A stretch of DNA of 64,000 nucleotides from a virus (taxonomy: Duplodnaviria > Heunggongvirae > Uroviricota > Caudoviricetes): IMG/VR virus record IMGVR_UViG_3300027908_000001, positions 23,167 to 87,166 of that record; one strand, written 5' to 3'. The notes under the pieces were generated by a model. That model was given only the letters and a program-made list of their open reading frames with translations. It made no database searches and was not told the DNA's origin. Of the stretch, positions 1 through 18,874 are shown piece after piece; positions within the stretch are counted from its first letter, which is position 1; each line of letters begins with the position of its first letter. Position numbers and translations under genes: made by a program.

Positions 1-2208
1 CGTGTACCAGTTCCGACTTTTCCGGTCATACTCGGTCTCCACCTTGAAATCTCCGATGACAATGGAGCGGTTCTCGCGGTGCTTGAAAAAATCAATGGCC
101 ACTTGTTTGCGACCTTCTTTGTCGCTGGCGGCATCATAGCGAGTAATAGCGTCTTGCAAACCGTGTTGACTTGTGGATTGCCCGGTTCGGACGTGCGCCG
201 CTTCCAGTTCCGCGAACATCCCCATTTCCTTGTCCACGAACAACGGGAATCCGGCAATGCCCTTGGATGCCCGGTTGGTCACCCGATGCCATTCCCCGTC
301 GTCTTGGTACTTCCACCCTCGGAGTTGATAGAAGTCGCCGGTCGTGCTGCTCTTGACGCGCTCGTAGCGGGCCGAGAAGTCGCCCTCGGTGATTTCGACC
401 GGACCGGCGGTGAACTCGCCTTTGGCGTCGCGCGGGTGCTGCGCCTCATCAAACGATTTCTCAACTTCCTCGGATTTGGCAATCCGGGTCGGCCACTGGT
501 TGAACAGTTTGCCGAGACTGCTGACGTTGATGATTTGCCGCGTCTTGAAATCGATGGTGGTGCCGTCATTGAGTTTGGCAGTAAGCGTTGACCATCCCCA
601 GACGTTGCCGTCGCCGCGATGACCGACCGACACCACCTCTCGGCCCTTGGCTTCCTCCGTAATCTTGCCAGTCAATTTGTGCGCGTACTCAGCGAACGAT
701 TCATCAGCCAGCCGTTCAGCGTTCGCCGCGATGGTCTTGGCGCGCGCCGCCGGTTCTTCCTTGAACTTCATGGTGTTCGGGTCGGCCATGCTGCATGAAC
801 GGTTCACTGGTTCCAGCCAGTGCTGGGCTGACGTGCGGGCATCCGTCGCCTGCCGATACGCCGCCTTGCTCATTGAACCTCGGGGACGTGGCAAAGCCTT
901 GTCTAAATCCCAGTTGGCCGCCTTCATGTCCGTTTCGAGCTTGGTCACGTAACGGGTAATCTGGTCGTGCAGCGCGTCCCGAAGTTGATTGCGCACCGGC
1001 GCGATGGCGGTCTTGACTTTATCCTGTACCGCTCCGAACTCGGCATTGTCGGCCCGGTACTTATCCATACGCTTGGCATGTTCGGTGTCGGCCGCTTCCT
1101 GCTCGCGGAACTTGGAATAAACCGGCTGAAACTTCTTGGCGTATTCGTGTTCGTTTTGCTGTGCCGCGAAGTACGCGTCCCGTGCCGCTAAGAAAGCCTT
1201 CTGTTCCGGCGAATCGTTCGGAGTTGGTTTCGTATCCATCTCCGACATTTGCTTGTCGCGCGTCGCGATGGCGTCATATGCGGCGCTGGTGCGCTTGCGT
1301 TCGCCCTTGAGCCGTTCCATTTCGGCGGACATCGAGGCGAACTCGCCATGCTCATCCCGAGGATGTTTGGCCTCGAAGCTGGCGTCTTTTCCGATGCGGC
1401 TCACCGGCGGATTGCCTACAATGAATTCCTCGTAGCGGCCCGACAGACCGACGTTGACCGCCAAGATATTCTCGACCGGCACGTTCTTGGTTGTAATGAT
1501 GTTGCCAAACTCTGCCGCCTTCTCGCGGGTCGATGCCCAGTTGGTCGTCGGCTTTTCCTTCTGGACGCCGGTGGCGCGGAACAATGGCACGGTATCGCCG
1601 TAGTGCTGGCGCAACGCTTCGCGCGTGTCCTTGAACGTGTCGTAAAGCTGTTCAGGCGAAACCTTGCTGTTGTGGCCGAGCATGACTTCGTCCACGGCAG
1701 TGTTGGCATTGAACCAGACACCGATGACGGCGTCTACCAACGGCGTGTAAACCGCCTTGTTCTTGGTGAGGTCGTTGCGGGCGGTCAGGACGATGTCGGA
1801 TGGCAGCGTACTCTGGCGCTCGGCTGGCGACGGGATGCGTGACGGGTCCAGCGGCTTGGCGATGTCGAACCGGAGCGACCAGAGTTCGGTGGACAGCTTG
1901 CGGTATTCCTTGGCTTCGTCGGTGGTCAGCCCGCTGAGCTTGGCCAACTCCTCAGCGCGTGGTAGGAGTTCCTTGATGCGGGCAATCTTGGCCTCTCGGG
2001 TGTCGGCTACGGCGAATTCACCCCGACTATCTCGCGGGTGCTGCGCCTCATTCCAATCCGCTGCCTTCAGCACGGCCTCCGTGGCGCTGAGCCCGTCTAT
2101 CTCCTCGCAGATGGCCTGCAAGAATGCCTCGTCCTCTAGTTCCGGGAACAGGAATCTGTCGTCCGTCCCGCCGATGCGGCCAGTTTGGATGTCGGTGTCG
2201 AGGCTCAT
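1..2208 (-). CDS. Giant multidomain polyvalent-type protein, N-terminal ~736 aa (ORF runs off window edge; 3' end outside)
   Basis: ATG at 2208..2206 with in-frame TAA upstream at 2226..2224. Manual minus-strand translation gives MSLDTDIQTGRIGGTDDRFLFPELEDEAF...AQHPRDSRGEFAV...AKHPRDEHGEFAS... with no stop down to nt 1 (last codons ...SRNWYT). Absent from supplied ORF track because no in-window stop. Carries the same HPRDxxGEF motif as the three giant ORFs downstream. Confidence 0.6.
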   Translation of the reverse strand, partial: MSLDTDIQTGRIGGTDDRFLFPELEDEAFLQAICEEIDGLSATEAVLKAADWNEAQHPRDSRGEFAVADTREAKIARIKELLPRAEELAKLSGLTTDEAKEYRKLSTELWSLRFDIAKPLDPSRIPSPAERQSTLPSDIVLTARNDLTKNKAVYTPLVDAVIGVWFNANTAVDEVMLGHNSKVSPEQLYDTFKDTREALRQHYGDTVPLFRATGVQKEKPTTNWASTREKAAEFGNIITTKNVPVENILAVNVGLSGRYEEFIVGNPPVSRIGKDASFEAKHPRDEHGEFASMSAEMERLKGERKRTSAAYDAIATRDKQMSEMDTKPTPNDSPEQKAFLAARDAYFAAQQNEHEYAKKFQPVYSKFREQEAADTEHAKRMDKYRADNAEFGAVQDKVKTAIAPVRNQLRDALHDQITRYVTKLETDMKAANWDLDKALPRPRGSMSKAAYRQATDARTSAQHWLEPVNRSCSMADPNTMKFKEEPAARAKTIAANAERLADESFAEYAHKLTGKITEEAKGREVVSVGHRGDGNVWGWSTLTAKLNDGTTIDFKTRQIINVSSLGKLFNQWPTRIAKSEEVEKSFDEAQHPRDAKGEFTAGPVEITEGDFSARYERVKSSTTGDFYQLRGWKYQDDGEWHRVTNRASKGIAGFPLFVDKEMGMFAELEAAHVRTGQSTSQHGLQDAITRYDAASDKEGRKQVAIDFFKHRENRSIVIGDFKVETEYDRKSRNWYT

Positions 2209-2353
2209 GAATTTACCGGTGGCTTAATCCCCAAATCCTTGGCAATCATTTTGGCAAGCTCTTGCACCAGCCGCTTCTCGGTCTCGCTGAGTTTCGGCGC
2301 AATGTACTTGTCGTAACTCAGTTTCATAGCCGGAGAGATGACGTAAGTGTCGC

Positions 2354-2590
2354 TCATGGCTGCAAGAGATTCTGCCGGGACAATTTGAGCTTATGCTCGC
2401 CCGAAGCCGTCTTGATGGTTGCGGATTTCTGGTTCACTCGAATCACGTCATGCACCTTAACCTCGAACGCGACCTTGGTCAAGAAGTAACAGGGTATCCG
2501 CCCTCGGTCGCAGGCCGGTAGGTCGGTAATGAGTATCAAGCCGGTCGGGTGATGCTCTATCCGAGCGATATTGCACGATGTCTCACTCAT
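2354..2590 (-). CDS. hypothetical protein (78 aa)
   Basis: ORF track; same strand as flanking genes, sits between two giant genes. Confidence 0.3.
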   Translation of the reverse strand: MSETSCNIARIEHHPTGLILITDLPACDRGRIPCYFLTKVAFEVKVHDVIRVNQKSATIKTASGEHKLKLSRQNLLQP

Positions 2591-2742
2591 GACGGCGGAA
2601 TCCTTCGCTGGCGATGGCCCGACGCCGCGCCTCGAATACTTTGTCCACAGCCTTTTCCAGCCGCCGCCGATTGGCCGCGCGCTGCTTGGGTGTCAGTCGC
2701 TTGGCCCGGTTGCGCTTCTTGATGCCCTTCCAGTATTTAATA

Positions 2743-4305
2743 TCAGACTTGGGCATGCGCCGCCATCCTTTCGAGCTTGAGCTTCTGGTACGCCTGTCCA
2801 ATCTTCCACCCGAGACTGTCCGGGGAGAGGTCTTTGCGGGCTTCGTAGCCGCCGTTCGGGCCACGGAACAAAAGCACTTCGCGACCGAATTTCGGAAAGC
2901 TCGGTGTGGCGAACGTTGCGAATTCCCACGCGTGATGGATACCAGCCAGCCGTTGGTTGGATTCCTCGAACTCGGCATCGCCCATCCGCTCTATGGAGTG
3001 ATGCGCGTCCAGCATGGACTCGAACCAGCCGCGCACTTCCCTCTGGGCGTCTGGATTGGCGAAGTCGTAGCCGTTAAGAGGCCAAGCCAGACTACCGACC
3101 TTCGCATTCGCCTGTAACTCGATGTACTTCACGCCAATCTCCTGACAGAATTTCTCGGACTGGTTGTAAAAGTCCGTGCCGATGCCGGTTCCCTGCCAGC
3201 CCGGATGGATGTCCAGACTCATGTTGTGACAGGCCAGATTGCCTTCCCTATCCAGACCGAGCACGCGGTGGAAGCGTCCGACCTGTTCAGACGTGTTCCG
3301 ATTGTAGATGTCCCCTGCCACGACCAGCGCCGGTTGGTTGTCCATGATGTGCGGGATGAACTTGTCGATGCGGACGGCCAAGTCGGGATGGTGTGGCACG
3401 CTGAAACCGGTTTCAAACTCTTCCTTGGTCATCCCGGTCAACTGCGGCGGCATCTTCTGCGGCTCCACCGCTGCGGAGGCGCTGGCAAACTTGCCGTGCT
3501 CGCCGCGGGGATGCAGTTCCTCACGCCACTCGGCGGCCTTGGCCAAATCCTCGACCAGCGCCGCATCCGAGATGTCCACCGACTTGGAGATGGGGACGGA
3601 CACTGGCCGGACGGTGATGGCGGAAAGGCGCAGATGGACGTTCTTGCCGACTTCGTGTACCTTAACCACGTCACCGCATGGGGTGGTTTGGACGGAGTAG
3701 AACCGGCCCGGTCGGATGGCGGCGCGGTCGAGCGGAGCGCCCAGTTCCGATTTCTTTAGGATGACTTCGAGCACCACAAGGTCATCAAGTGATTTCTTGA
3801 CCGGCCCCGCAGCATCCGCATCGAACAGGATTACCTGCGGGGAGAACCGTTTGTCAGATAGGTCCAGCACGCCATCGTAGCCTTGCGCGCGCAGATAGCG
3901 CTGGCGGCGACCAAAGTAATTCTCGCCATCTTGCATATCGGCATTCTCCGCCACTTCATGCAATAGTTTCTTGCCATCCGCTGGCGACCGCACCAATCGC
4001 AAGCGAATATCATTCGGCAGCGTGTACTTCAAAACCTGCGTGTCTTTGCCGGTGCCACGGTTTTCCTTGGCCCATCTCAGGGCTTTGTCGCGCTCGCCTG
4101 TGAGGTAGAACTGACCGGAGAGGCCGCCGGTCTTCGCACCAAAGGCTTTTATCTTGCGCGCCGAAGCCGCCGTCGTGCCGTGATACAGCACCGTTCCGGC
4201 GTGATAGATAGCAGCGTCGCCGTCGATGTGGTAAATCGCCGAGCCAGAATTGGCGAACCGGCCGCGCTCGTCGTGGTTGGGATTCGATTTTTGAAGGTGC
4301 ATCAT
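2743..4305 (-). CDS. polyvalent-type multidomain protein (520 aa) with NPNHDERGRF and ELHPRGEHGKF motifs
   Basis: Long ORF; N-terminal NPNHDERGRFA motif and internal HPRGEHGKF motif shared with neighbouring giant proteins; YHGT...GxFY module paralogous to modules in 1126- and 1600-aa proteins. Confidence 0.55.
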   Translation of the reverse strand: MMHLQKSNPNHDERGRFANSGSAIYHIDGDAAIYHAGTVLYHGTTAASARKIKAFGAKTGGLSGQFYLTGERDKALRWAKENRGTGKDTQVLKYTLPNDIRLRLVRSPADGKKLLHEVAENADMQDGENYFGRRQRYLRAQGYDGVLDLSDKRFSPQVILFDADAAGPVKKSLDDLVVLEVILKKSELGAPLDRAAIRPGRFYSVQTTPCGDVVKVHEVGKNVHLRLSAITVRPVSVPISKSVDISDAALVEDLAKAAEWREELHPRGEHGKFASASAAVEPQKMPPQLTGMTKEEFETGFSVPHHPDLAVRIDKFIPHIMDNQPALVVAGDIYNRNTSEQVGRFHRVLGLDREGNLACHNMSLDIHPGWQGTGIGTDFYNQSEKFCQEIGVKYIELQANAKVGSLAWPLNGYDFANPDAQREVRGWFESMLDAHHSIERMGDAEFEESNQRLAGIHHAWEFATFATPSFPKFGREVLLFRGPNGGYEARKDLSPDSLGWKIGQAYQKLKLERMAAHAQV

Positions 4306-4343
4306 CCTACAATTCGCCTTGCCGGGTCACTGCCAAAAAGTTC

Positions 4344-4372
4344 TTGCCTCCGCAGTCCGCTGGCCGTATAGT
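4344..4372 (+). promoter_or_regulatory. candidate sigma-70 promoter TTGCCT-N17-TATAGT driving the plus-strand mini-gene
   Basis: TTGCCT at 4344..4349, 17-nt spacer, TATAGT at 4367..4372; located in the only sizeable intergenic gap (4306..4463) of this part of the genome. Confidence 0.35.
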
Positions 4373-4463
4373 GCCCGCGTGGACGGCACATAAGACCTCT
4401 CTATTGATTCTTCGATTACTGGCACGCATGAAGTGTGTCCGTGTTTGAATTCAAGGAGAGCCA

Positions 4464-4652
4464 ATGTCTTACTACGATAGTCCAGTCATTCTCTACCGCT
4501 GCGCGCGGTGCCGCCTCATGAAACCTTCCACCCAGTTCCAACCGTTCGTCGAACGAGGAACCACCATCCGGTCGGACTCCTGCGATGCCTGCCGACGGGA
4601 AATCGTGGCACTGCGGTCGAGGAAACGCGTTCATGACGTAACCTTGCGCTGA
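4464..4652 (+). CDS. small zinc-ribbon protein (62 aa), opposite strand to all neighbours
   Basis: ATG at 4464 preceded by AAGGAG (4453..4458); two CxxC pairs (CARC...CDAC); sits in intergenic gap between two minus-strand giant genes. Confidence 0.5.
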   Translation: MSYYDSPVILYRCARCRLMKPSTQFQPFVERGTTIRSDSCDACRREIVALRSRKRVHDVTLR

Positions 4653-5026
4653 CGGGCCAGACGCCGCGCCGCAGCCGGGGTAGAGGCCAGCGTGGCCGCC
4701 TTGCCGACAAGTTCGCGCGCTTCCATGACCTTGGCCACCTGAGAGGCTGGAATCGCGACATAGAACCGGACGGCCTGTTCACCGTCCATCTTGTTCAACC
4801 GCTCCTTGGATTTGCGGATTGGAGCGGGCAACGCTACATTCGGGTCTGGCCAGTCGGCGATGAAGGATTTTATGAGTTCGGAGTCCGGCGCGGGCTCGTC
4901 CTCAAAGAGGTTTGGCATCACGAACGGTCCGACATCCGGCAAGATGGCCGTTGCGTGGTCATCCCGACCCACGATACGCCAACCCTCGGGCACGGCTACG
5001 TCAGGCTTGAGTAGTATTGGCGTCAT
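4631..5026 (-). CDS. hypothetical protein (~131 aa; track ORF 4631..5170 trimmed to internal Met MTPILLKP)
   Basis: ORF track; start chosen to minimise overlap with the 1126-aa gene ending at 5001; protein-like composition. Confidence 0.3.
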   Translation of the reverse strand: MTPILLKPDVAVPEGWRIVGRDDHATAILPDVGPFVMPNLFEDEPAPDSELIKSFIADWPDPNVALPAPIRKSKERLNKMDGEQAVRFYVAIPASQVAKVMEARELVGKAATLASTPAAARRLARQRKVTS

Positions 5027-8000
5027 TGACGACTTTCTCCATGTACTCCAACAACGGCCAGTTCCGTTGATGGAAATCCTCGCGCTTGTAGTTCGGGGCT
5101 GTAACCGCGGCAAATGTTTCGGCGAACCCTTCCTTGGAATTATCGAAGCTATACGATGAAATGGTCTCATGCCGAATGTCGCTCAGGCTTCTCGCTGGCT
5201 TTTCCCCACCGGCGATATATTCCCGCTGCTGGCGCATCGCAACCTCGACCTCGGCGTCGTAGTCCTCCTTATACGGGGCGTACAATCCGCGCCATTCCTG
5301 CGCGCGAGCGATATCCGTGCTCTCAATCCCATCTTCGACATGATGGCCGTATTCGTGGTGCAGTATTCCTTCCAGAGAATCTCCGGGCACAGAACATTCT
5401 CCCGGCTTCACGTTAAATGGCTCGTCGGCGTTCACCTTGGAAATTTTACCACCCCAAAGTTGCGGCGTGTCATACACCACAATTCCGTTGCCGTGCATGT
5501 ACTCGGCTTGCGGCGTGTTCAGGTCCATAGGCTTGGAATCCGGTCGAGCCTGACTGAGTGATACGACCACCGGCACCTTTCCGTACTTCTCAAAGATACG
5601 CTGCATCGACGGGTCATTCCAGAATTTGTTGGCCGCCTTCTGAACGTCGTCATGAAACTGCGGGGTCACCTTGTCGGCCTCCGCGCCTGCGAACGTCTTG
5701 GACCAGCGACGCAGCACTCGGGTAAAGGCGGCCTTCTCTCCCGCCGAGAATCGAAGCGCCACATCGTCGGAATCGCCGGGCTTGACCATGCCCATTTTCT
5801 TGCGCCAAAGCGATACGGCCAGCATATTGGCGCGCTGGTCGTTTAACTCCTGAACCGTCATATCCTTGAGCTTGTCCAGCTTGGCCGCCTCAAGCTTCTG
5901 AAAGTGCGAGACGAACGCCCGCGCCGATTCCACCGAACCGGTTGGCACCACCCCGCTGACCGCGAACTCCCCCTTGGCATCCCGGGGGTGCTGCGCTGGG
6001 TCGAACGCCTTGCCGATGTCTGCTTCCTCGTGACTCCATGTGCCGCGATTGAAGGCCGACTTAATTTGGTGTGGCTCGAATGCCAGCCAAACGCTGTGAG
6101 TAGGGCCTCCCATTTTCCCGCCAGTGTCTTTGATGCCATCGTAACCAAATCTCTGCAGAATTGGCAGCGCATCCTTCGGGACCTGCGTGGCCCAGAACGT
6201 CTCCTTGCCGGTAGCCTCCTCTTCCTTGATGTCGCGCACCCAAGCCTTGAGCGGATATTCCTTCGTCCAATGCGTGTCGCTGATGACATCCTCGCTCGGC
6301 ATGCGTTTGCGCTTGACGGCGCTCTCCAAGACATCCATCAAATCTTTCGGAATCGGCTTGCCGCCGTCGAGCGGGTTCTTGATGCTAAGGTATAATGGGA
6401 ACACCGCCGGTTGCGACCAGTTGTACGCGTTCCATTTCAGGCCGATGTGGTCGAGTAGCTGCTCAAATGGACTCTTGTTCTGCCGCAGTGCGAACGGGCC
6501 TTCGCCTTCATCGGCATACGCAATGTTGTACCCCATTGACTCCATGACCTTAAAAATGGAGAATAGGTCTTTGGTGCCGCCGCGATAGAATGCTTGCCGT
6601 GAATCCTTGTCATAGTCCTTATTGTCGGCCACGTACTTGTCCAAGTCGAAGTGGACCCCGTCCTCTCGATTCAGGAACTCCTTGGCTTTCGCTGCCTGCT
6701 CCGGCGTCAGCGTGATTTGCCAGAGCTTCTTGTTGAACTCTCCGTTCTTACCGGCAATCCTATATTGGTCGCCGTTCTCGTAGGTTTCTTTCACGCCCAT
6801 TTTACCGGTCGCGTAATTGGAGGCAATGGCCGGGTCTTCGGTGGCGTAGAACGCGCCTGCGGTGGATTTGCGCGGGTTGAATCCTTTGCCGTAAAGCTGC
6901 GCATTGTTCTGACCGGAGTAGACGACCTTTGGCTGGCCTTTTTCATCCACGACTTTTGAACCAGCGAACCATGCTTTGAATGCTGGAGAAGAAGTGCCGC
7001 TCGTGAACTCCCCACCGCCTGCTGAGCCCTTCGGTACGCGCGGGTGAACGGCTTCATCGAAGGATTTGCGCATGTCATCCATCGCCTTGGCTACTTCCGC
7101 CGGTTCCTTGGTCACGTCTTTGCCATTGACGTGGGTGATGTGGATTCGTGAATCGTCGAAGATGACGTAGTTGTGGGTCTGCCGGTCCTTGGCTTTGTCG
7201 TAGTATGCCTTCGCATCGGCCTCGTGAATGAACTGCAAGGTGCCTTTCATTGAGTCATCCACTTCCCAAACGCTCGTCTTCGGGTCTTTGCGAGGTTCGT
7301 GGACACGACTGCCTTGGTCGAGGTACTTCAAACCCGGTATGCCGTTGGCTTTAAGCTCTTCGGAGGCGGCCTTGGGCGACCCTAACAGGTCGGAGAGTTC
7401 CGTGTAAAAAGTTGCCCCAGTCTTGTCGGACAGGTCGTACTCTTGAAATCGTCTCGATAGCTCACTGGCCTTATGGAAATCCGTTTCCTTGTTCACCACG
7501 TCATCTAGCACGTCCTTCACCGCCGACCGGATGCTGTCGTTCTGTTGGCTGAGCGGCCTGTCGTCATCCAATAATTCACCGGGCCTGACTGCCAACTTGA
7601 CCTGATACATATTGCCATGGCCCTGCGCGATTGCGCCTTTATCCACCGCGGCCAGTAGCGTATCGGCCTTGGCCTTCAATGCCTGCACGCCTTCGAGGTT
7701 TACTTCGAGGAACTCATTCGGCTTGTAGACCATGTCCTTGATGGCCTGAAATGTTTTTGCATGACCGTTCTGGCAGGTGCTGCTGTTGCCTTCATACTCC
7801 TTGGTGTCGGTCCAGTAGGTAATGCGCGCACCGTCGCTGGCCGTCCATTCTTGGCAGGGCACCGCTTTGCGCTCTGCGCCCCATCCATGCATGTACTCCA
7901 CGTCGACCGGCCCGGTCCACTTCCGCTCCCGGGCGTTCTTCACTTCGGCATCAACCTTGGCCTGATACTCGGACGCCCGCTGGTTGGCAACATCGACGGT

Positions 8001-8381
8001 GTTGGTCGCCCATTGCTTCAACTGATTCAGCGCGCGGGTCTGCGATGACTTGTTTGTAGAATTTAGCGCCACCTTGAGCTTGTTGTAGGCTGCATCGGTA
8101 ATCCCAAGGTCGTGCGCGTCGGCTCCGTCCACTAGAATAACATCGCCCAGCTTCTTGTAGCTCTCCGCAGTGGCTTGTTGGTCGGCGAAGTAGAGGCCGT
8201 ACCCGTATGCCTGCGCGCCTTCGCCTTCGCCGATATGGGATGAGGAAAACTCCGGTACTAGGTTCGGTGTGCCATGATACGCAACGATGCCGCCAGCGCC
8301 GTCCGATTCCGAGAACCGGCCTTTGTCGTCGTGGTGGACGTTAAACTTGGCGATGCGCCGCAATGTTGCGATGATGTTCAT
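5001..8381 (-). CDS. polyvalent-type giant protein (1126 aa) with C-terminal HExxH zinc-metallopeptidase motif
   Basis: ATG at 8381; motifs FNVHHDDKGRF (N-term), HPRVPKGSAGGGEF, HPRDAKGEFAV; HHEYGHH (HExxH) encoded at 5340..5360; TPEFKAWF...VVYSG...FYAT and SIKNPLD...GYDGI...QIKSAFN modules paralogous to modules in the 1600-aa protein. Confidence 0.65.
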   Translation of the reverse strand: MNIIATLRRIAKFNVHHDDKGRFSESDGAGGIVAYHGTPNLVPEFSSSHIGEGEGAQAYGYGLYFADQQATAESYKKLGDVILVDGADAHDLGITDAAYNKLKVALNSTNKSSQTRALNQLKQWATNTVDVANQRASEYQAKVDAEVKNARERKWTGPVDVEYMHGWGAERKAVPCQEWTASDGARITYWTDTKEYEGNSSTCQNGHAKTFQAIKDMVYKPNEFLEVNLEGVQALKAKADTLLAAVDKGAIAQGHGNMYQVKLAVRPGELLDDDRPLSQQNDSIRSAVKDVLDDVVNKETDFHKASELSRRFQEYDLSDKTGATFYTELSDLLGSPKAASEELKANGIPGLKYLDQGSRVHEPRKDPKTSVWEVDDSMKGTLQFIHEADAKAYYDKAKDRQTHNYVIFDDSRIHITHVNGKDVTKEPAEVAKAMDDMRKSFDEAVHPRVPKGSAGGGEFTSGTSSPAFKAWFAGSKVVDEKGQPKVVYSGQNNAQLYGKGFNPRKSTAGAFYATEDPAIASNYATGKMGVKETYENGDQYRIAGKNGEFNKKLWQITLTPEQAAKAKEFLNREDGVHFDLDKYVADNKDYDKDSRQAFYRGGTKDLFSIFKVMESMGYNIAYADEGEGPFALRQNKSPFEQLLDHIGLKWNAYNWSQPAVFPLYLSIKNPLDGGKPIPKDLMDVLESAVKRKRMPSEDVISDTHWTKEYPLKAWVRDIKEEEATGKETFWATQVPKDALPILQRFGYDGIKDTGGKMGGPTHSVWLAFEPHQIKSAFNRGTWSHEEADIGKAFDPAQHPRDAKGEFAVSGVVPTGSVESARAFVSHFQKLEAAKLDKLKDMTVQELNDQRANMLAVSLWRKKMGMVKPGDSDDVALRFSAGEKAAFTRVLRRWSKTFAGAEADKVTPQFHDDVQKAANKFWNDPSMQRIFEKYGKVPVVVSLSQARPDSKPMDLNTPQAEYMHGNGIVVYDTPQLWGGKISKVNADEPFNVKPGECSVPGDSLEGILHHEYGHHVEDGIESTDIARAQEWRGLYAPYKEDYDAEVEVAMRQQREYIAGGEKPARSLSDIRHETISSYSFDNSKEGFAETFAAVTAPNYKREDFHQRNWPLLEYMEKVVNDANTTQA

Positions 8382-11300
8382 GCTTCCTTGGTCAGCGGTA
8401 TCTCCGTATGCACTCCGGTCGGAGTGGAGAAATCAAGATGTGAAATGGGGATGGCCTTGCCTGCGAACCGGTCGTCTCCGACATACTTGTCCACGAACTC
8501 TGGTTTCAGATATGCAATCGTCATGTGGCCGATGTACTGGCCATCGAAATCGCTCTTGTACGGCAACCGTTTCAGGCGCTTGTTCATCCGGGTCAGCGCG
8601 CCGCCGTAGACCGGGACGTACAGCACGCGGTACTCCTTGCCTTCGCGTTGCGGGAACGATGCAGTCCGGCCGCACACGATGGTGAATGGCTCAAACTTGT
8701 CGGTGATGGCGCGAACGTCGGCAGGGTCTTGCGTATCCAGTCCGTAGAGCACCGTGGCGTGGATGTCTGTCTCGCGTCCGAAGTCCGGTCCGTAACTGTC
8801 GTCCGCGGCTGGCTCCGTGTAAAGCTCGCTGTCCGGTATCGACTTCCCGTACTCCAGAAACGGCTTGGCATCCTCGGGCTCGACCATGGCCATGACGCAG
8901 GACGCCGATAGCTTGGTGGCGTCGCGCTTGGCGAGCGGGGTCGTCAAGTCGGTGTCCTTTCCGTGTAGCCTGTCCCAGAGATAATCCAACTCGAAATAGT
9001 CGTAGGCCGCGTGGTGGCCGCGTGAGCCGCGCCGTACCGCTTGTGCCGTGGTCTCGCCCGGCAGGCCGTGCGTGATTTGAAGCTGCTTGTTTGTCGGGTC
9101 GGGCTTCGTGAAGTCGTAGCCGCGTTTCTCGATGTCCAGCGCGTGCTCGATTTCGTGCCGTATGGTGGACAGTTGGCGCTCCTTGACCTTGCCCTGCCAT
9201 GGCTCTGGACGTGGCAGCCCGATGACGAATTGCAGCGGCTTATTGGTGGCCTTGTCGTACTGGACGGAAATCTCGCCGTGCCGCGTGGACGTATCATGCC
9301 AAACGAACTTCGTAGGAGTCTGGATGCCAAACTTCTTCACATAGAATGCAACCGCCTTAGCCGGGTCGGTTGTGCCGGTTTCCTCGGCCACCAACTTGTG
9401 AATCAATTCCGTGGTGCGCTCGTTAATTGGGTCGTTATCGAACTGCGTCTTGGTCATACCCGCGACCTTTATCGCCGCCGCCTGTACCTCTGGGTCTTGA
9501 AACTTCGGCGCAAACTCTCCCCTGTCATCCCTCGGATGCTCGTCCTCTTCCCATGCCTTGCTGATGTCCGGGCTGTCGGCGTGCGGTGTCGGGTTGAATA
9601 CGGACTTGATTTGCGAAGGGTGGAACGCTATCCACGTGTCGCCGGAGTGGCCCGGCTGCACTTCGTTGCGGCTCGTGTTCTGGTAATGGATGCCGTCGTA
9701 GCCCAGCTTCACCAAGATGTCTTTGGCTTTCGCGGTGTGACGGTCGAGCAAGCCGATGCCGTAATCCTTTGCGAACTCATCCCATGACTCCCAGTTCCCG
9801 TACTTACCGCCGCTGTTGTGGAATCCTTTGCCGGACTGCAACGCGTCCCAGACTTCGCCGTAGTGCTGAATCTTCGCCGGGTCGGTGCTGTTATACGTCA
9901 CGGCCTTGATGAACAGGTTCTTGTCCGCCGGGAACACGACTTTCTCCACCGCGCGCGTGATGGCGTTCTGGTCGAACCCGGTATCTTCCGTGCCGACGTT
10001 CAGCGGGTGCTTGATGCTCAAGTAAACCGGGTACACCGCGCCACCGGGGATGAGCATCCGCACGCTGTAGTCCGGACCGAGCCGGTCGCGCATGCCCCAT
10101 GTGCTGCCGTGTTTGTTCACGTCGTAGGGCTCGACGGCGATGTCGTGGAGGTCTTTGTCTTGCTTGACCAATACCGGCAGACCGTCGTACTTGATTTCTC
10201 CATCCTTGCCCCGGTACCACGATTCGTCCGGATGATATTCGTTGACATGGAAATCTTGGGCGTAGGCGTACTCGCCTGCCGTAAACGCGTTCGGGACAGA
10301 TGGGTCGACGGCGAAGTGGGAGCCGACCTGCGTGTTGAAAAGTGATACGTTGTCCGTCGCGTCGGTCTTGAACTCGCTGAATGCCGCCCGGCTGCCGTGA
10401 TATACAACCAAGGGTTTCCCGTCCGGCGTCACGACCTTCGAGTCCCCGAACCATTGCTTGAATTCGGGCGTATTGGTCAAGTCACGCTTGACCTGCTGGC
10501 CCGGTTCCAAACTGTCGGAGCTTGTTGATATGTCCCGACCTTTCGCATCACCGGCTGCAAACCTTCCCCGCGCATCATGGTTGGGATTCGCCTTCCCCAC
10601 ATCTTCCGCCTCGCCGGTATCCAGCACTTCACCGCCGTCATCGCTCTGGGCGGCTGAGGCTTTTTCTTCGGCCAAGGTGGGCCAAGGATTTCTCGCCAAG
10701 TCTGGGTCTGTAAAGACATTTGTTGGCGGCTCCGTCTCAACCTCTTCATCCGGGCCAAGCTCGTATACGGCCTCCACGGCACAACGACAGTTCTTGACTA
10801 GGAAGCTCTCACACTGGTATAAATGGTACTGTGAAGCTTGGAAATCATACACATGGGTGCTCACCGAAAAATTCCTAATCTTGCTGATTTTGGCAGGCGC
10901 TATGAAGCTGGCGAACCTACCACAAAACTCGCTCGCGCGGCGGGTGTCACCAAGAGAACAATGAACATCCGTCTCCGAAGCATTGGAGTGCGAATCCGCA
11001 CCCCCAGTGAAGCGCAGCTTTTGAAGAATGTCCAATGGGGTCCGCGGAAGCGCCAAAGGATTACCGCTGCTGCTCACGCCGCCAATACCGGCAGAAAGCG
11101 AAGACACATTGAACTTGTCCATATTGCCCAAGGCCGAGAGCGCAACCAAACCCATATCTCCTATATTGAGGCTCCGCTTGCTGCCAGATTGCGGGATGCT
11201 GGCCTTGCGGTTACGCAACAAAAGGCGATTGACAAGTACAATATTGACATCGCTATTGAAGAACCGCGCATCGCCATAGAAATCTGTGGCGGCCAAGGTG

Positions 11301-13180
11301 CCATTTGGAATCGTTACCGCACCTTTTACAGCAAGCGCCTCAAATATATCCTCGACAGCGGTTGGGCCGTTGTAATGGTCTATACCATAGCCGCCCGCCA
11401 TCCCCTCACTGTCGGTTGTGACCAATACATATTCGCCCTCATTGAGCGACTTCGCCTGTCTGTAGCCGGTAGGCGTGAGTACCATGTGATTCGCGGTACA
11501 GGAAAGCCTACGCCCATTAGCAAGATGTATTTCAACCGCAGGCCCGACATAGAATACCTTGGATGCTGCGACGAGGTCTGGAATAATCGCCTTATTGCTT
11601 GGGAGGATGCAATTCGGATGGGCCGGAAACGCGTCTTGGATGTCTGAGATTGCCCAAACTCTTCCGTCGAAGCCATCGCAAATCGGGCATTCGTCAGGAG
11701 TACCAAGCCAGCGAGCCAAGGAAATTCCGTCATTTTGGTATGATGCCAATGCAGCCCGCACTTGTCCTCGCGCAAATTCGGTGCGGGCAATTCTGTCAGA
11801 CTCATACCCGGTCAAATCCTGAAATCGGTCATTGATAATTCCGCCCATTTCCTTGGTGGGAATACCGTCGCTCAATCCATCCACGAGCAAGTCCTTTATC
11901 GAGCTATCAATTCTCGAAAGCGTGCTCTCCGAAAACTTCATCGCATACTCTTGCAGCGCATCTTCCAGCGGCTCTTTGACGGCGGAGGCCAGCGTGTCCT
12001 CGTCTATCTCCAATTCATCGGCGGCGATGGCGATGCCGTCGTCCACCCCGGCCGATTGCGTAATCATCAGCGCGTCGGCCAGTTCGGCAATCGCATCTTC
12101 ACCGGCATCCGGGAAAGCGTCCTGCAGGATGGCTTCGATGTCGAACTCGAATTCTTCCGGGTCGGGTAGGTCATCGTCGTCGGGGTCGTCTTTGGCTATG
12201 CGCGTGAAGGTTTTCCAGACGCGGGCCAGTAGGGACTTGGTGATATCTTTCTCTTTGGGGTCGAACGTGCCGCGGTTGCCGATGGCGGATTTGACCTGCT
12301 CGGGGTCGAACGCCGCGTAGGTGGTAGCGAATCCACTCTTGCTATCCTCATAGAATATTGCGCCGTCGTATCCCAATTTCTTCAGCACACCAACAAATTC
12401 AGCGCCATCCTTGTCATCGAAAAACTCCCAGTAGTTGGAGGCGTTCCTGTAATAGGATGGATTCAGGCCAGCGCCCTTCAACTCATCAAGCGTGTCCTCA
12501 TCAAATCCATTGCGTAAATCCAGCGGGGACTTGATGTTCATGTAAACCGGCATGACGTTGGTGCCGGGTTCTTCAGGGTTAATATATTCCTGAGCGAACT
12601 TCGGATTCTCGGTCGCGAATATGGCACTGCGCTGAGTCTCGAAGTTACCAAAAAATCCGTAGTTATTGATGCTCTTCCTGCCGACTTCAAATGTGCTGAA
12701 ATCCCCCTTGGTTGCATGGAACAGTTCCAGTGGCTTGCCGTCTTTCATGACCACGGATACCGGCGGCAGACTCGGGTCGCGCTTGGACGACCATGCGTGC
12801 GGGTCTTGCCAGTCGCCGAACCAAGCTTTGAACTCTGGTGTTGTAGTCTGCGAAGCGAACTCACCGCCGCCGGTCGCGCCTTTCGGATTCCGTGGATGCT
12901 TGGATTCATCCCACGCCTTGGCAATCCGGCCGAGTAACGACTTCTTGACCGGCACCGGCGGATGCTTGGCGAGCGCTGCCAGTACGCGACCGCGCCACTT
13001 CGCGAACACTGCGGCGATGGCGGCCTTGCCAGCCTTTAGTCCGGGCTCATCTTCAAAATGCGGGGCGTCCTTGGCCTTGGAGATGCACGTCCGGCATCCA
13101 CACGCCGTCAGCGAGATGCGACATTCATGGACGGCGTCGAATAGTTCTTGGGCTTCGGCTTTGGAGAGTCGAACTGGCAC
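8378..13180 (-). CDS. polyvalent-type giant protein (1600 aa) containing a MuF/SPP1-gp7-like head-morphogenesis domain interrupted by an intein
   Basis: Track ORF with GTG start at 13180; MuF-like block RIARTEFARGQ...WLGTPDECPICDGFDGRVWAISDIQDAFPAHPN|C...N|CRCAVEAV; HPRNPKGATGGGEF, NPNHDARGRFA, EHPRDDRGEFA motifs; two copies of the TPEFK(A/Q)WFGD...(Y/F)H(G/A)(S/T) and (S/N)IK(H/S)PL...GYDG(A/I)...Q(I/V)KS(A/V) modules. Confidence 0.7.
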   Translation of the reverse strand: MPVRLSKAEAQELFDAVHECRISLTACGCRTCISKAKDAPHFEDEPGLKAGKAAIAAVFAKWRGRVLAALAKHPPVPVKKSLLGRIAKAWDESKHPRNPKGATGGGEFASQTTTPEFKAWFGDWQDPHAWSSKRDPSLPPVSVVMKDGKPLELFHATKGDFSTFEVGRKSINNYGFFGNFETQRSAIFATENPKFAQEYINPEEPGTNVMPVYMNIKSPLDLRNGFDEDTLDELKGAGLNPSYYRNASNYWEFFDDKDGAEFVGVLKKLGYDGAIFYEDSKSGFATTYAAFDPEQVKSAIGNRGTFDPKEKDITKSLLARVWKTFTRIAKDDPDDDDLPDPEEFEFDIEAILQDAFPDAGEDAIAELADALMITQSAGVDDGIAIAADELEIDEDTLASAVKEPLEDALQEYAMKFSESTLSRIDSSIKDLLVDGLSDGIPTKEMGGIINDRFQDLTGYESDRIARTEFARGQVRAALASYQNDGISLARWLGTPDECPICDGFDGRVWAISDIQDAFPAHPNCILPSNKAIIPDLVAASKVFYVGPAVEIHLANGRRLSCTANHMVLTPTGYRQAKSLNEGEYVLVTTDSEGMAGGYGIDHYNGPTAVEDIFEALAVKGAVTIPNGTLAATDFYGDARFFNSDVNIVLVNRLLLRNRKASIPQSGSKRSLNIGDMGLVALSALGNMDKFNVSSLSAGIGGVSSSGNPLALPRTPLDILQKLRFTGGADSHSNASETDVHCSLGDTRRASEFCGRFASFIAPAKISKIRNFSVSTHVYDFQASQYHLYQCESFLVKNCRCAVEAVYELGPDEEVETEPPTNVFTDPDLARNPWPTLAEEKASAAQSDDGGEVLDTGEAEDVGKANPNHDARGRFAAGDAKGRDISTSSDSLEPGQQVKRDLTNTPEFKQWFGDSKVVTPDGKPLVVYHGSRAAFSEFKTDATDNVSLFNTQVGSHFAVDPSVPNAFTAGEYAYAQDFHVNEYHPDESWYRGKDGEIKYDGLPVLVKQDKDLHDIAVEPYDVNKHGSTWGMRDRLGPDYSVRMLIPGGAVYPVYLSIKHPLNVGTEDTGFDQNAITRAVEKVVFPADKNLFIKAVTYNSTDPAKIQHYGEVWDALQSGKGFHNSGGKYGNWESWDEFAKDYGIGLLDRHTAKAKDILVKLGYDGIHYQNTSRNEVQPGHSGDTWIAFHPSQIKSVFNPTPHADSPDISKAWEEDEHPRDDRGEFAPKFQDPEVQAAAIKVAGMTKTQFDNDPINERTTELIHKLVAEETGTTDPAKAVAFYVKKFGIQTPTKFVWHDTSTRHGEISVQYDKATNKPLQFVIGLPRPEPWQGKVKERQLSTIRHEIEHALDIEKRGYDFTKPDPTNKQLQITHGLPGETTAQAVRRGSRGHHAAYDYFELDYLWDRLHGKDTDLTTPLAKRDATKLSASCVMAMVEPEDAKPFLEYGKSIPDSELYTEPAADDSYGPDFGRETDIHATVLYGLDTQDPADVRAITDKFEPFTIVCGRTASFPQREGKEYRVLYVPVYGGALTRMNKRLKRLPYKSDFDGQYIGHMTIAYLKPEFVDKYVGDDRFAGKAIPISHLDFSTPTGVHTEIPLTKEA
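10790..11611 (-). other. Hint-domain intein (274 aa) inserted in the MuF HPNCRC motif
   Basis: N-extein ends ...FPAHPN, intein begins C(11611..11609)ILPSNK..., block-B-like GRRLSCTANHMVLT, C-terminal block HVYDFQASQYHLYQCESFLVKN(10792..10790) followed by extein Cys (10789..10787) RCAVEAV; removal regenerates HPNCRC, the canonical MuF motif. Confidence 0.5.
10838..11647 (+). CDS. HTH + DUF559/Vsr-like PD-(D/E)xK endonuclease-domain protein, encoded antisense inside the intein
   Basis: Track ORF (TTG at 10838; first ATG at 10853); HTH-like TTKLARAAGVTKRTMNIRLRSIGV; DUF559-like block YNIDIAIEEPRIAIEICGGQGAIWNRYRTFYSKRLKYILDSGWAVVMVY (cf. family pattern D-x-a...vvEiDGgqH...D..R...L...GW.VlRf). 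Confidence 0.45.
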   Translation: MEIIHMGAHRKIPNLADFGRRYEAGEPTTKLARAAGVTKRTMNIRLRSIGVRIRTPSEAQLLKNVQWGPRKRQRITAAAHAANTGRKRRHIELVHIAQGRERNQTHISYIEAPLAARLRDAGLAVTQQKAIDKYNIDIAIEEPRIAIEICGGQGAIWNRYRTFYSKRLKYILDSGWAVVMVYTIAARHPLTVGCDQYIFALIERLRLSVAGRREYHVIRGTGKPTPISKMYFNRRPDIEYLGCCDEVWNNRLIAWEDAIRMGRKRVLDV

Positions 13181-13194
13181 TTGTGGCCTGCACT

Positions 13195-13860
13195 TTACGG
13201 CTCTTTGTGGTAGGAATCAATCTGTTCTTGGTCGGATTTGGAAACGCCGTTCAGGGACGCTTGGAATCGAGCGTCAAGGTCGTCCTTCATCTTTTGCGGC
13301 AAAGTCGAATAAGAGTCCTCAGTGTGCCCCTGCCGCGCCAAGAACGATGTCCTTGCGTCGTTACTATCGATGGGGGCCACGCCGCCGCGCCGCTCGCTGC
13401 CATGACCGCCTGCATCTTTGGCCTTACCCAAAAACTCGCTGGCCGTCTTGCGCACCGGCGACGGTTTGTCAATGACCTCGGCCCACTTCGATTGCCAGTC
13501 ATCGAACGACTTACGGACCCGGCCTGATATGCCGAGACACTTGGTTGCGGTGCTGTGGAGCGTTGAACCCAACTGGAAACCCGCGTCGGATTTCAGGAAC
13601 TCGACGGCCTTGGATTCGGTAATGCCACTCTTAATGAGACTTGACACTACCAAATCATCGTAACGCGCGTCCCTGACGGCCTTGAAGAACCCTCCACCGG
13701 CTTCGGCACGTAGGCGCTTGGCGAGGTTCTGGGATTCAAAGTGACGGTGGACGGGCGTCGGCAGCCTAGGCGCGGGCGCACCCGACACCTTGGCGACCGG
13801 CTCGAACGTCGTCTTGAGGTTGTCAAAAGATTTGAATATGCCGCTGAATTTCCCGCTCAT
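13195..13860 (-). CDS. hypothetical virion-associated protein (221 aa) with KAKDAGGHGSERRG motif
   Basis: Track ORF, ATG at 13860, TAA at 13195..13197; shares KAKDAxGHGSxxRG motif with 14451..17699 and 19745..20458. Confidence 0.45.
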   Translation of the reverse strand: MSGKFSGIFKSFDNLKTTFEPVAKVSGAPAPRLPTPVHRHFESQNLAKRLRAEAGGGFFKAVRDARYDDLVVSSLIKSGITESKAVEFLKSDAGFQLGSTLHSTATKCLGISGRVRKSFDDWQSKWAEVIDKPSPVRKTASEFLGKAKDAGGHGSERRGGVAPIDSNDARTSFLARQGHTEDSYSTLPQKMKDDLDARFQASLNGVSKSDQEQIDSYHKEP

Positions 13861-17400: not shown

Positions 17401-17699
17401 TCCTCGTCCCAAATGTCTTTGCGGAGCAGCGACTTTTCCAGCATCTCCACCGTCGGCTCAATCAAGGCACCAGCCTTGGTGACGTTGGCCGCGTCCTGTA
17501 GTCCAAACACCTTCGAGGCGATGGTGCCTGCCTCATCGGGCGTGTACCCGAAACTGACGAGGTAATTCTTGCAGCCGTCGAACCCGGACTTGAACGTACC
17601 GTCCGGGTTCAGGAACTTCGCGCGCGCGCCTTCCAGCGACACCTTCGCAATCTTCTGCTCATCCGACAATATGAGGTTCTTGAACATGACCAATTCCAA
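14451..17699 (-). CDS. large zinc-ribbon-rich structural/internal protein (1082 aa)
   Basis: Track ORF (TTG at 17699; first ATG at 17687); four CxxC...CxxC zinc-ribbon pairs (CPSCADR, CPACGQ...CGSCGK, CKNCGAS...CPACGES, CPNCGGT...CSACGWE); three KAKDAxGHGSxxRG motifs; internal repeat (EQCMTTMIQDNGHDYGEASDICDKLGQDALWDDDD / MDDCMSSLVTDQSMDPYEAKDICAQLGQSADWDDTDD). Confidence 0.6.
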   Translation of the reverse strand: MELVMFKNLILSDEQKIAKVSLEGARAKFLNPDGTFKSGFDGCKNYLVSFGYTPDEAGTIASKVFGLQDAANVTKAGALIEPTVEMLEKSLLRKDIWDEDSDGAEPTDFENREQCMTTMIQDNGHDYGEASDICDKLGQDALWDDDDIFKNLDEHARAVLLQDAVNKARATEGIVLRVPIAIIAKICPSCADRMEKHNMKLLKIRVTDEDTALAKAIVQVSKEKDAKGHGSNKRGDRLGEKSEALSALAVTRGNIATEDTSRALSPRFDDRGAHAAAARSNEDAGKAYGQAALAARANNDPHHANFNSAEAAMHYSMGRIHRDAEAGKLDWNGYLDRVQSVNNDHYKAMEAQRAWAAPAIKEAAIQHHMASNELESDEFQTAHQKGEAMYNAERGIKKADGEHKTAQEREDDGGFFNYCVKEIAPMSGVSDPNALCAALHKKYLGRWPGADKSVEKAMRTEVANADGIVVAVVIHKSDGSRVTMGDVQIGKSISNCPACGQMPDKVQFQGDALKCGSCGKTSDMEEWDDDTGDTSGGGGGKATQPAAPTAPVQKAWKCKNCGASMSDAKVSGGAAVCPACGESNDEAYDMDSVDDDDVSKAKDALGHGSNKRGEESEEEKQSRMTVGTAITWAANRAPGTDAQIKALEGLRDSGMSVPKDIATINRAIKKLQSERIVIKVDQRPTEAERNQEIMERTKQEMEAVTPTHETAGQRVIGKTLKFMGALVGLTKASKPVVVRKDADASEFSSMDDCMSSLVTDQSMDPYEAKDICAQLGQSADWDDTDDFDFDLYKSRSGKPVAIGKALELTSAAHVAKAKDAVVVKSDDAESKYTEGGHFKGEAGTGERFDNAVKYMQAKGYSEDSAKRIAGSIAQHVGKTVSDSDAISAFVEKADDSHEVEKALELAKTFSGNTGAVNVSTGQADKVVCPNCGGTMDHTDNGVGGVFVCSACGWEAGDNLDNETTGPVDDSDPMAVIAAFAKAKDAGGHGSERRARAASALDALRNKYPVGTKVSVNDHDSYSGPATVIGHENNRLGMAMVSTDKGVYYAHETGPDNSVSKSGQKPAGLLGRMQNIVKSGGQV

Positions 17700-18394: not shown

Positions 18395-18874
18395 CTAAGC
18401 CTTAACCTCGGAAGGACCGGGCAAAAGAACTGGACCATCTGCTTTGCGAATCTTGTGCGCAGCAAAAATTTCGTTGAGGTGCGCTACATCCAGCGGCTTC
18501 ATGAGTAGCCCGAAATATCCAACCTTGGCGGCCTTGTTCAGGCATTCGCTATCCGGGCTGTCGGCGATTAGTATCACCGGCACGCCAGCCAGTTTCACCT
18601 TTAGGAATCGAAGCGTCTCGACAATATCTATATCGGTCACGTTCAAGTCCAGAAACAACAGGCTTATTAGCCTATCCCGACCAGCCGATGTTTCAGTGTC
18701 AATTATTGTCCTGAACATCTCCCCCGTTGTGGCCGATAGGACGTTACAGCCATATTGATTCAAGACATTGGCTATCAGGACCAGCGTTTCTGTTTCGCTC
18801 TCGACCACTAGCACTCGCGGTGTCTTATTCATCGCAATAACGGCTTCATCCACGAATTCAAGCACTCGGTTCAT
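18395..18874 (-). CDS. standalone response-regulator receiver (REC/CheY-like) domain protein (~159 aa; track ORF 18395..19009 trimmed to Met MNRVLEF)
   Basis: PRVLVVESE...LNQYGCNVLSATTGEMF...ISLLFLDLNVTDIDIVETLRFLK...VPVILIADSPDSECLNKAAKVGYFGLLMKPL: acidic pocket, phospho-acceptor Asp in LFLDLN, conserved T/K positions; no output domain. Confidence 0.5.
   Translation of the reverse strand: MNRVLEFVDEAVIAMNKTPRVLVVESETETLVLIANVLNQYGCNVLSATTGEMFRTIIDTETSAGRDRLISLLFLDLNVTDIDIVETLRFLKVKLAGVPVILIADSPDSECLNKAAKVGYFGLLMKPLDVAHLNEIFAAHKIRKADGPVLLPGPSEVKA

Follow-up and report, generated by a model that had tools for sequence, protein, structure and literature searches.

Polyvalent proteins are regarded as the weapons of a phage that arrive in the host before all others. 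The phage-type polyvalent proteins were named by Iyer, Burroughs, Anand, de Souza and Aravind (2017, J Bacteriol; PMC5512222). In that paper they are predicted to be packed into the head and injected, the ADP-ribosyltransferase (ART) domain ART-PolyVal is given as their commonest protein-modifying domain, which may occur in several copies, and a MuF fusion, a zincin-like metallopeptidase, 2H and GNAT are all listed as components. In our search of its text the word 'linker' does not occur, and none of the passages on motifs that were displayed mentions a recurrent short motif before or between modules. The MuF-toxin polymorphic toxins of temperate phages join an N-terminal MuF domain to C-terminal domains that vary and are toxins or effectors, ARTs among them (Jamet et al. 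2017; PMC5576092); a text search of that paper gave no mention of a motif or a linker. For phage T4, PMC3012670 describes a short conserved N-terminal peptide as the sole feature common to IPI-III and Alt, which are diverse head-packaged and injected anti-defence proteins. Here we analysed a stretch of 64,000 nucleotides (the window in the following) from a virus of the Caudoviricetes, positions 23,167 to 87,166 of the IMG/VR record IMGVR_UViG_3300027908_000001. Four large proteins at its start, which we call A to D, share a short recurrent peptide motif. In this region an uncultured phage of ~197 kb encodes phage-type polyvalent effector proteins in tandem, and the motif is a real and widespread module prefix that is apparently undescribed. 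The polyvalent-protein identity is known biology and the new part is the motif: as the protein family is already known, the value lies in the motif and its generality.

Copies and variants of the motif

The six-frame translation of all 64 kb contains exactly 11 copies of the motif, all of them in A to D. The initial annotation had counted at least 11 and its positions and spellings agree with ours. All copies lie on the minus strand and we numbered them from 1 to 11 in the order of the proteins. Protein A carries the long-loop variant HPRNPKGATGGGEF at aa 95 (copy 1, 12857..12898), the short variant NPNHDARGRF at aa 865 (copy 2, 10559..10588) and KAWEEDEHPRDDRGEF at aa 1215 (copy 3, 9512..9538). 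For B we found NVHHDDKGRF at the N-terminus (copy 4, aa 14, 8313..8342), a second long-loop variant, HPRVPKGSAGGGEF, at aa 446 (copy 5, 7005..7046) and KAFDPAQHPRDAKGEF at aa 798 (copy 6, 5964..5990). The N-terminus of C is likewise marked by a copy, NPNHDERGRF (copy 7, aa 8, 4255..4284), which is followed by EWREELHPRGEHGKF at aa 265 (copy 8, 3487..3513). The three copies of D are DWNEAQHPRDSRGEF at aa 57 of the full protein (copy 9, 2014..2040), SFEAKHPRDEHGEF at aa 282 (copy 10, 1339..1365) and SFDEAQHPRDAKGEF at aa 591 (copy 11, 412..438).

Aligned with each other the 11 copies read h-x-K-[AS]-[WF]-[DE]-E-x-x-H-P-R-D-x-x-G-E-F-A. The short form is K-[AS]-N-P-N-H-D-x-x-G-R-F and the long-loop form H-P-R-x-P-K-G-x-x-G-G-G-E-F. 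The suggestion that the two main spellings belong to one family is confirmed by intermediates in a related phage, e.g. K-x-Y-N-P-x-E-x-R-D-x-x-G-[RK]-W. The codons of the conserved residues vary among the copies (CAT/CAC, CCG/CCC/CCT/CCA, AGG/CGG/CGC/CGA and GGA/GGG/GGC/GGT), and this variation between synonymous codons indicates selection on the peptide and not a DNA repeat. We can practically rule out that the motif is due to chance, to compositional bias or to a repeat or recombination site at the level of the DNA: 2000 residue shuffles of A to D gave a mean of 0.0005 matches compared to the 11 observed, a relaxed pattern found no further real copy in the six frames of the 64 kb, synonymous codons vary freely and differ at nearly every conserved residue, and there are hundreds of independent occurrences in unrelated proteins. 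The motif is a separable protein-level prefix of ~14-20 residues, in general form h-x-K-[AS]-[WF]-D-E-x-x-H-P-R-D-x-x-G-[RKE]-[FW] (long-loop variant HPR.P.G...GG[EQ]F), followed by a Gly/Ser-rich spacer.

For the conformation of the motif we have two AlphaFold2 models. For B aa 430-830 the mean predicted local distance difference test score (pLDDT) was 57.7, and both motif regions scored ~30 beside a moderately confident ART core. The low values are weak evidence from modelling, consistent with a flexible linear motif. The model of B aa 780-1126, which comprises a motif and the zincin-like module, had a pLDDT of 41.9 and is unusable for the conformation or docking of the motif.

Spread of the motif

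We searched 1.84 billion (1.84e9) cluster representatives with a motif profile of 30 positions derived from the eight HPR-type copies in the window. At E <= 1e-3 there were 736 matching proteins and at E <= 1e-10 there were 115, with up to 18 copies per chain; matches to this profile are necessarily proteins with several copies. The 441 instances that we extracted follow the pattern [W 58% / F 30%]-D-E-x-x-H-P-R-[D 71% / G 19%]-x-x-G-[R/K]-[F 80% / W 20%] and continue with Gly-rich sequence. The median spacing between motifs was 261 aa, i.e. about one domain.

We also used an exact degenerate DNA pattern for W-D-E-x-x-H-P-R-D-x-x-G-x-F. The pattern has 24 specified bases and chance matches are therefore negligible. 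It matched at least 120 IMG/VR stretches as well as 68 stretches in species-representative bacterial genomes from many phyla: Firmicutes, Actinobacteria, Proteobacteria, Spirochaetes, Planctomycetes, Melainabacteria and others. The taxa include Clostridia, Actinomadura, Kitasatospora, Acinetobacter, Comamonas, Oligella, Desulfovibrio, Treponema, Planctomycetes, Verrucomicrobia, Bacteroides and many Gastranaerophilales. Among isolated phages a tblastn search with the short query returned few motif matches. One of them, in the Microbacterium phage Pavlo, was spurious, and phage Mu itself does not have the motif.

We found no earlier description of the motif. Pfam and NCBIfam have no model that extends over it, also at a permissive E <= 1, no PDB chain matched the profile at E <= 10, and a word-indexed homolog search with the motif alignment found nothing. 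A full-text literature search with several spellings of the motif gave nothing relevant, where the coverage mostly excludes subscription journals.

Proteins and domains that carry the motif

To characterize the carriers we surveyed 48 motif-rich proteins and 49 viral ORFs (open reading frames) with Pfam. The unrelated domains that follow the motif are effector domains: R-S-E ARTs (ADPrib_exo_Tox), ART-PolyVal, GNAT, zincin, NUDIX, InPase, Acb1, S-adenosylmethionine (SAM) lyase, Zeta toxin, RelA_SpoT, LPD3 and peptidoglycan-binding domains. The motif was also observed in head proteins, namely MuF proteins, Mu-type and other portals, and the S78 and XkdF prohead proteases. Protein gp4 of the isolated Pseudomonas phage Orimi01 consists of a portal core, an acidic linker, the motif copy DFDENKHPRSDDGKF and then an ART with the signature LYRG / STS / EKE. 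In the Xanthomonas phage PhiXhv-5 the motif stands after the portal core, ahead of a C-terminal extension of ~170 aa, and on one viral contig it stands after the S78 protease domain. We considered whether the motif is a part of the ART-PolyVal domain and rejected this, since most homologs do not have it: it is present in only 13 of the 110 ART-PolyVal homologs of A.

The motif had initially been called a linker. Its position in the carriers shows that it is a module prefix instead. Of the 124 proteins from the search of cluster representatives, 24 have their first copy no further than 30 aa from the N-terminus, as do 13 of the 49 complete viral ORFs of 100-900 aa. A copy that close to the C-terminus is seen in only 1 of the 124. 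Where the N-terminus is shortest the sequence is MWDE..., MPWDE... or MADWDE..., and no protein starts inside the motif.

The prefix also coincides with the breakpoints between genes. Protein P0116, a single chain of 3696 aa, contains regions homologous to A 865-1214, B 14-445, B 446-797 (E = 4e-155) and C 265-520, and for several of them the homology sets in precisely at a motif. In the window A stops and B starts within one and the same ATGA (8378-8381, minus strand), an arrangement from which we would predict that A and B are probably translationally coupled. Where A and B adjoin here, the homologs P0253 and P0002 continue in frame and have a motif behind the 2H domain. The ATGA junction on the one side and the in-frame motif on the other indicate gene fission or fusion at the motif, and together with the blocks of P0116 they indicate that evolution fuses and splits genes at units of motif plus domain. 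Judged from these alignments, the motif with its domain is shown to be the unit that is shuffled, fused and split.

Domain content of proteins A to D

The initial annotation had assigned the four proteins to the polyvalent-protein concept. This holds: ART-PolyVal scores above the cutoff, MuF, zincin-like and probable 2H domains are present, and terminase and portal genes are in the same window. Several domains are joined within one chain in A (two ART-PolyVal copies, MuF and 2H), in B (two ART-PolyVal copies and the zincin-like module) and in C (an ART-like and a GNAT-like module). The association with a phage is given by the large terminase (57712-59247), the portal (54787-56340) and HNH endonuclease genes of the window and by the MuF domain inside A.

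The four large minus-strand ORFs have the sizes that had been reported: 1600 aa for A (8378..13180), 1126 aa for B (5001..8381) and 520 aa for C (2743..4305). Protein D (1..2208) indeed runs off the window after 736 aa. The source contig, which is 197,437 bp of ENA metagenome sequence and has A in identical form (P0001), shows that the complete D is only 773 aa long. The ORFs had been taken as consecutive, which is not strictly so. According to the gene calls for the source contig a 131-aa ORF without family match (4631..5026, minus) lies between B and C and three small ORFs of 57, 78 and 50 aa (2205..2756, minus) lie between C and D.

Protein A starts with a conserved N-terminal domain, followed by a motif, ART-PolyVal copy 1, a MuF domain that is split by an intein, a motif, ART-PolyVal copy 2, a motif, a module with the sequence HEIEH and a 2H phosphoesterase. 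In B the order is the motif at aa 14, ART-PolyVal copy 3 with a large insert, a motif, ART-PolyVal copy 4, a motif and a zincin-like module with the sequence HEYGH. In C the motif at aa 8 precedes a weak ART-like domain (DUF3990 / ART-PolyVal) and the motif at aa 265 precedes a GNAT-like C-terminal module. D has no Pfam match; its three motifs separate three modules to which no function is assigned.

ART-PolyVal (PF18760, gathering threshold 31.2 bits) scored 119.7 bits in A, across three stretches that make up two domain copies, and 73 bits in B across two stretches. The region in C reached 18.2 bits and lies under the threshold. We count four clear copies and a fifth weak one: copy 1 in A (12245..12856, aa 109-312), copy 2 in A with inserts (9581..10483, aa about 900-1200), the divergent copy 3 in B with its large insert (7122..8288, aa about 32-420), copy 4 in B (6012..7001, aa about 461-790) and the ART-like domain of C (3811..4212, aa about 32-165), in which YHG and GYDG are retained. 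All five are on the minus strand and all five are aligned by a local hidden Markov model (HMM) built from ART-PolyVal homologs. Two different repeated modules had been proposed for the segments between the motifs. The paralogy of these segments is supported by BLASTP, Pfam and local HMMs, but the two modules turned out to be halves of one domain: TPEFKxWFGD..VVYHG..FYAT is the N-terminal half and SIKNPL..GYDG..QIKSAFN the C-terminal half of ART-PolyVal in the local HMM. The active-site residues of ART-PolyVal are H in strand 1, Y in strand 2 and D in strand 5, as stated in PMC5512222. In the local HMM alignment, which includes no structure, the His of YHG is found in 4 of the 5 copies, GYDG is also found in 4 of the 5, and the strand-2 position is Y or F. 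The second ART-PolyVal of B has Ser in place of the strand-1 His (VVYSG). Ser is also found in the close homolog P0094 and His is retained in P0026. This copy of B may be inactive or have an altered activity, as predicted from the substituted residue.

The zincin-like metallopeptidase module of B (5004..5954, minus, HEYGH at 5343-5357) matches Peptidase_Mx (E = 0.004) and anthrax lethal factor (ATLF, E = 0.043) below the Pfam cutoff. Its downstream sequence EGFAETF is conserved in P0007, the one detectable homolog. A homolog search with this module returned nothing, not even B, so that no deep alignment is possible. The HEIEH of A (9143..9157, minus, aa 1342-1346) is a candidate second zincin-type site, with no profile support. 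The 2H phosphoesterase (2'-5' RNA ligase superfamily) at the C-terminus of A (8501..8782, minus) scores 22.3-24.8 bits (E = 2.5e-05) with Pfam 2_5_RNA_ligase2, under the gathering threshold of 27 bits, and matches phrog_755 (RNA ligase) with E = 3.5e-05; this domain likely belongs to the 2H phosphoesterases even though it is below cutoff. The weak GNAT-like module of C (2746..3438, minus) is homologous to the C-terminus of the 3696-aa protein P0116. Module 1 of D (1366..2040, minus) has homologs within other giant phage proteins, with the motif and without it (P0123, L003), and module 2 (475..1032, minus) matches phrog_4687, a family of unknown function. PDB sequence searches with the profile of the D module, the C-terminus of B and the C-terminus of A gave nothing meaningful.

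The only relative of D among the viral contigs is L003 (IMG/VR contig 3300037193_000134), where a version of module 1 with 54% identity is located inside an ORF of more than 1261 aa (8963-12745) that does not contain any motif. This ORF resembles a large internal or tail-associated protein. Effector domains evidently travel in carriers without the motif, too.

We detected the MuF domain (phage Mu F / SPP1 gp7) of A in two parts, which are separated by an intein of 274 aa (10790..11611, A aa 524-797). The part before the intein (11612..11902) ends with AHPN and the part after it (10751..10789) starts with CRC; all three are on the minus strand. The intein thus sits within the conserved MuF motif HPN|CRC and in-silico splicing restores HPNCRC, while the homologs P0004 and P0006 have an uninterrupted HPHCRC. 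After removal of the intein the score for MuF (PF04233) rises from 19.1 to 33.3 bits and exceeds the gathering threshold of 29.6 bits. Of the two features that had been annotated, the MuF domain is there but interrupted, and the HExxH peptidase has a candidate in the zincin-like module of B. The intein starts with Cys524 (Cys1), has a TANH block B and ends with ...LVKN797 followed by Cys798, with Lys and not His as the penultimate residue. With Pfam Intein_splicing it scores 31.4 bits (E = 1.9e-07), below the gathering threshold of 35.8 bits, and its NCBIfam matches fall on models of the intein-bearing archaeal RFC and IF-2. The unrelated motif-rich proteins P0153 and P0236 have inteins at the same HPN|CRC site, which looks like a recurrent insertion point.

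A second peptide upstream of the array

Just upstream of A to D we observed five copies of a second peptide, K-[AE]-K-D-A-x-G-H-G-S-x-[KR]-R-G (GHGS peptide), at 13387-13416, 14721-14750, 15864-15893, 16998-17027 and 20327-20356 on the minus strand. A 221-aa protein (13195-13860) and a protein of ~226 aa (19745-20458) have one copy each and a 1078-aa protein (14451-17699) has three, all on the same strand. The 1078-aa protein contains several zinc-ribbon-like CxxC pairs (Zn_ribbon_IS1595, DZR and Lar-like PHROG matches) and is divided into modules of ~380 aa by the peptide. Its counterpart in a related phage has 1419 aa and also contains the GHGS peptide.

An exact DNA pattern for the GHGS peptide matched 71 IMG/VR stretches. 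The peptide forms the very N-terminus (M-K-D-A-K-G-H-G-S...) in 119 of 131 ORFs, which encode small proteins with a median of 145 aa, and the genes are clustered in tandem with up to seven matches per stretch. The GHGS peptide and the main motif have the spacing D-x3-H-x2-D-x2-G in common and never occur both in one ORF. The parallel strengthens a reading as leader or label, with an N-terminal leader in small genes that acts as an internal delimiter in fused giants.

Function of the motif

The four polypeptides carry a series of modules that would manipulate the host: five ART-like domains, a GNAT-like domain, a 2H domain and one or two zincin-type peptidases. Protein A is tied to the head through its MuF domain. 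If the model for polyvalent proteins and the example of T4 Alt apply here, the proteins would be packed in the capsid and delivered with the DNA. A conserved component of the procapsid interior may recognise the motif, so that tagged modules are loaded into the head. Before or during ejection, chains of several modules may then be processed one module at a time, by cutting or other handling. Candidate partners of the motif are the maturation protease, the scaffold, the portal, MuF and the inner capsid surface. The explanation that we favour is that the motif is a combined address and processing label which is read inside the procapsid, analogous to the capsid targeting sequence of T4; we give this explanation an even chance of being correct. 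The more general statement that [WF]DExxHPRDxxG[RK][FW] is an undescribed pan-phylum 'address label' of head-packaged, host-injected phage proteins, with KDAxGHGSxxRG as a second one, is conceivable, although we would sooner expect it to fail than to hold.

Several observations weigh against an address and processing label. The strict MuF signature was found near only 6 of the 120 viral motif loci (among the matches listed), and we rejected a tight association of the motif with a nearby MuF signature for this reason. The distance from the effector array to the portal and terminase genes is ~40 kb, and PHROG scans of ~20 window ORFs (23-61 kb) identified no prohead protease and no major capsid protein. 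Portal and MuF fusions are packaged already, so that pure targeting would be redundant for them and release or processing fits better. HExxH is rarer in proteins that are rich in the motif (50/147, 34%) than in ART-PolyVal homologs without it (63/97, 65%). Both AlphaFold2 models are of low confidence. The motif-bearing proteins are predicted components of virions and predicted substrates of cleavage.

The HExxH counts also bear on the explanation that we rank next, namely that the zincin-like metallopeptidase of the polyvalent proteins recognises or cleaves the motif and would in this way cut the chains after delivery or inside the head. In PMC5512222 the metallopeptidase is proposed as the processing enzyme. 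The location of the motif between modules, with a spacing of about one domain, fits such a site. So does the domain content of the array: B ends in the HEYGH module with its weak peptidase matches and the downstream Glu motif that is conserved in P0007, A has the HEIEH site, and in both proteins a motif copy lies directly upstream of the HExxH-bearing module. The model of motif and zincin module, however, was uninformative, and some chains with 8-16 motif copies have no HExxH at all. Because HExxH is rarer in motif-rich proteins we rejected a coupling of motif and HExxH within the same protein. Moreover, the copies that directly follow the initiator Met (MWDE..., MPWDE...) have nothing upstream to release and are not explained by a pure inter-domain cleavage site, and with its 14 residues and variable loop the conserved stretch is long compared to protease sites. 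Overall we consider this explanation unlikely.

Somewhat less likely still is an action after injection, in which the motif would be a short linear motif that binds a universal host component or the co-injected DNA in order to refold, localise or activate the modules. Since the exact motif is conserved in the phages and prophages of many bacterial phyla, its partner would have to be very conserved as well. Also in favour of this role, the motif is predicted to be flexible and accompanies enzymes of counter-defence and takeover (ARTs, Acb1, SAM lyase, RelA_SpoT). It is also present in structural head proteins (portal, prohead protease, MuF), however, which have no obvious host-binding role, and we know of no host-binding motif that resembles it, with no database searched for one.

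We regard it as improbable that the motif, with its conserved D, E, H and D, is a small structural or metal-binding cap at the domain boundaries which stabilises linkers in very long chains and carries no signal. The halves WDExxHPR and GxF are split by a variable loop of 3 or ~8 residues, which suggests that they meet in space, and the GHGS peptide in the same phage shares the spacing of the conserved residues. In the AlphaFold2 model, on the other hand, the motif has a pLDDT of ~30 and does not pack against the ART domain. A cap at boundaries also does not agree with a motif at the very N-terminus of small single-domain proteins, nor with the fact that most polyvalent proteins with ART-PolyVal manage without it.

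If the motif is such a pan-phylum address label, the injected effectors of uncultured phages, and new anti-defence enzymes with them, could be listed by simply searching sequences for it, and the label could be used to load foreign cargo into capsids, as has been done with the T4 capsid targeting sequence. The motif tags modules, small single-domain proteins, portals and prohead proteases, and it would provide a handle for experiments and for effector mining in metagenomes and possibly a cargo tag for capsids.

Genomic context

Nearly all long ORFs of the window are on the minus strand. The first 20 kb had no megablast match among 50,697 phage records and no isolated phage has a terminase that is more than 29% identical to the one encoded here. 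A related metagenomic phage (locus L004) shows the same tandem layout, with polyvalent genes of 2270, 1367, 662 and 316 aa and small ORFs between them, and there a gene for a receiver domain and a giant protein of the zinc-ribbon type precede the polyvalent genes. The initial annotation had described the array as unusually long. This cannot be maintained, as the related phage has the same layout and single proteins elsewhere reach 3696, 5313 and 7334 aa with 10-18 copies of the motif.

The window encodes a response-regulator receiver domain protein (18395-18874, minus, Pfam Response_reg E = 2.4e-11) at the same relative position as in L004. On the other side of the array, after an 86-aa ORF, the next sizeable gene past D lies on the source contig just outside the window (L001 23832-24803, beyond coordinate 1). 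Its product has 459 aa and contains two Clp_N repeats (E = 4e-19). Clp_N is the substrate- or adaptor-binding domain of Clp unfoldases and a curious neighbour for an effector array. Between the portal region and the array we found glycosyltransferase-like genes on the minus strand (41749-42729, 26275-27234 and the GtrB-like 23042-23938) and a gene of a lipoprotein family (31446-32537, minus).

Comparison with known systems

Like the polyvalent proteins of Iyer and colleagues, A to D are large phage proteins that join unrelated enzyme domains. They differ in the distribution of the modules, which occupy four genes separated in part by small ORFs, and in the intein of the MuF domain. Compared to the MuF-toxins, the MuF domain of A is internal and split by the intein, and B, C and D do not have one.

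Secreted polymorphic effectors have marker motifs, such as MIX for type VI secretion or the pre-toxin motifs VENN and DPxGL. These mark off effector cassettes that are exchangeable, and new effectors can be searched for with them; in this respect the present motif is alike. Here, however, the carrier is a phage head and not a secretion system, there is no sequence similarity, and the motif stands before every module and not just before a C-terminal toxin.

The capsid targeting sequence of T4 is removed by the gp21 protease. The present motif resembles it in being the only element that is common to very diverse effector modules and in its often N-terminal position. The likeness would be one of function and not of descent, and there is no sequence similarity between the two. 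The T4 sequence is specific to its lineage, whereas the present motif occurs across many phyla and is reiterated within giant chains.

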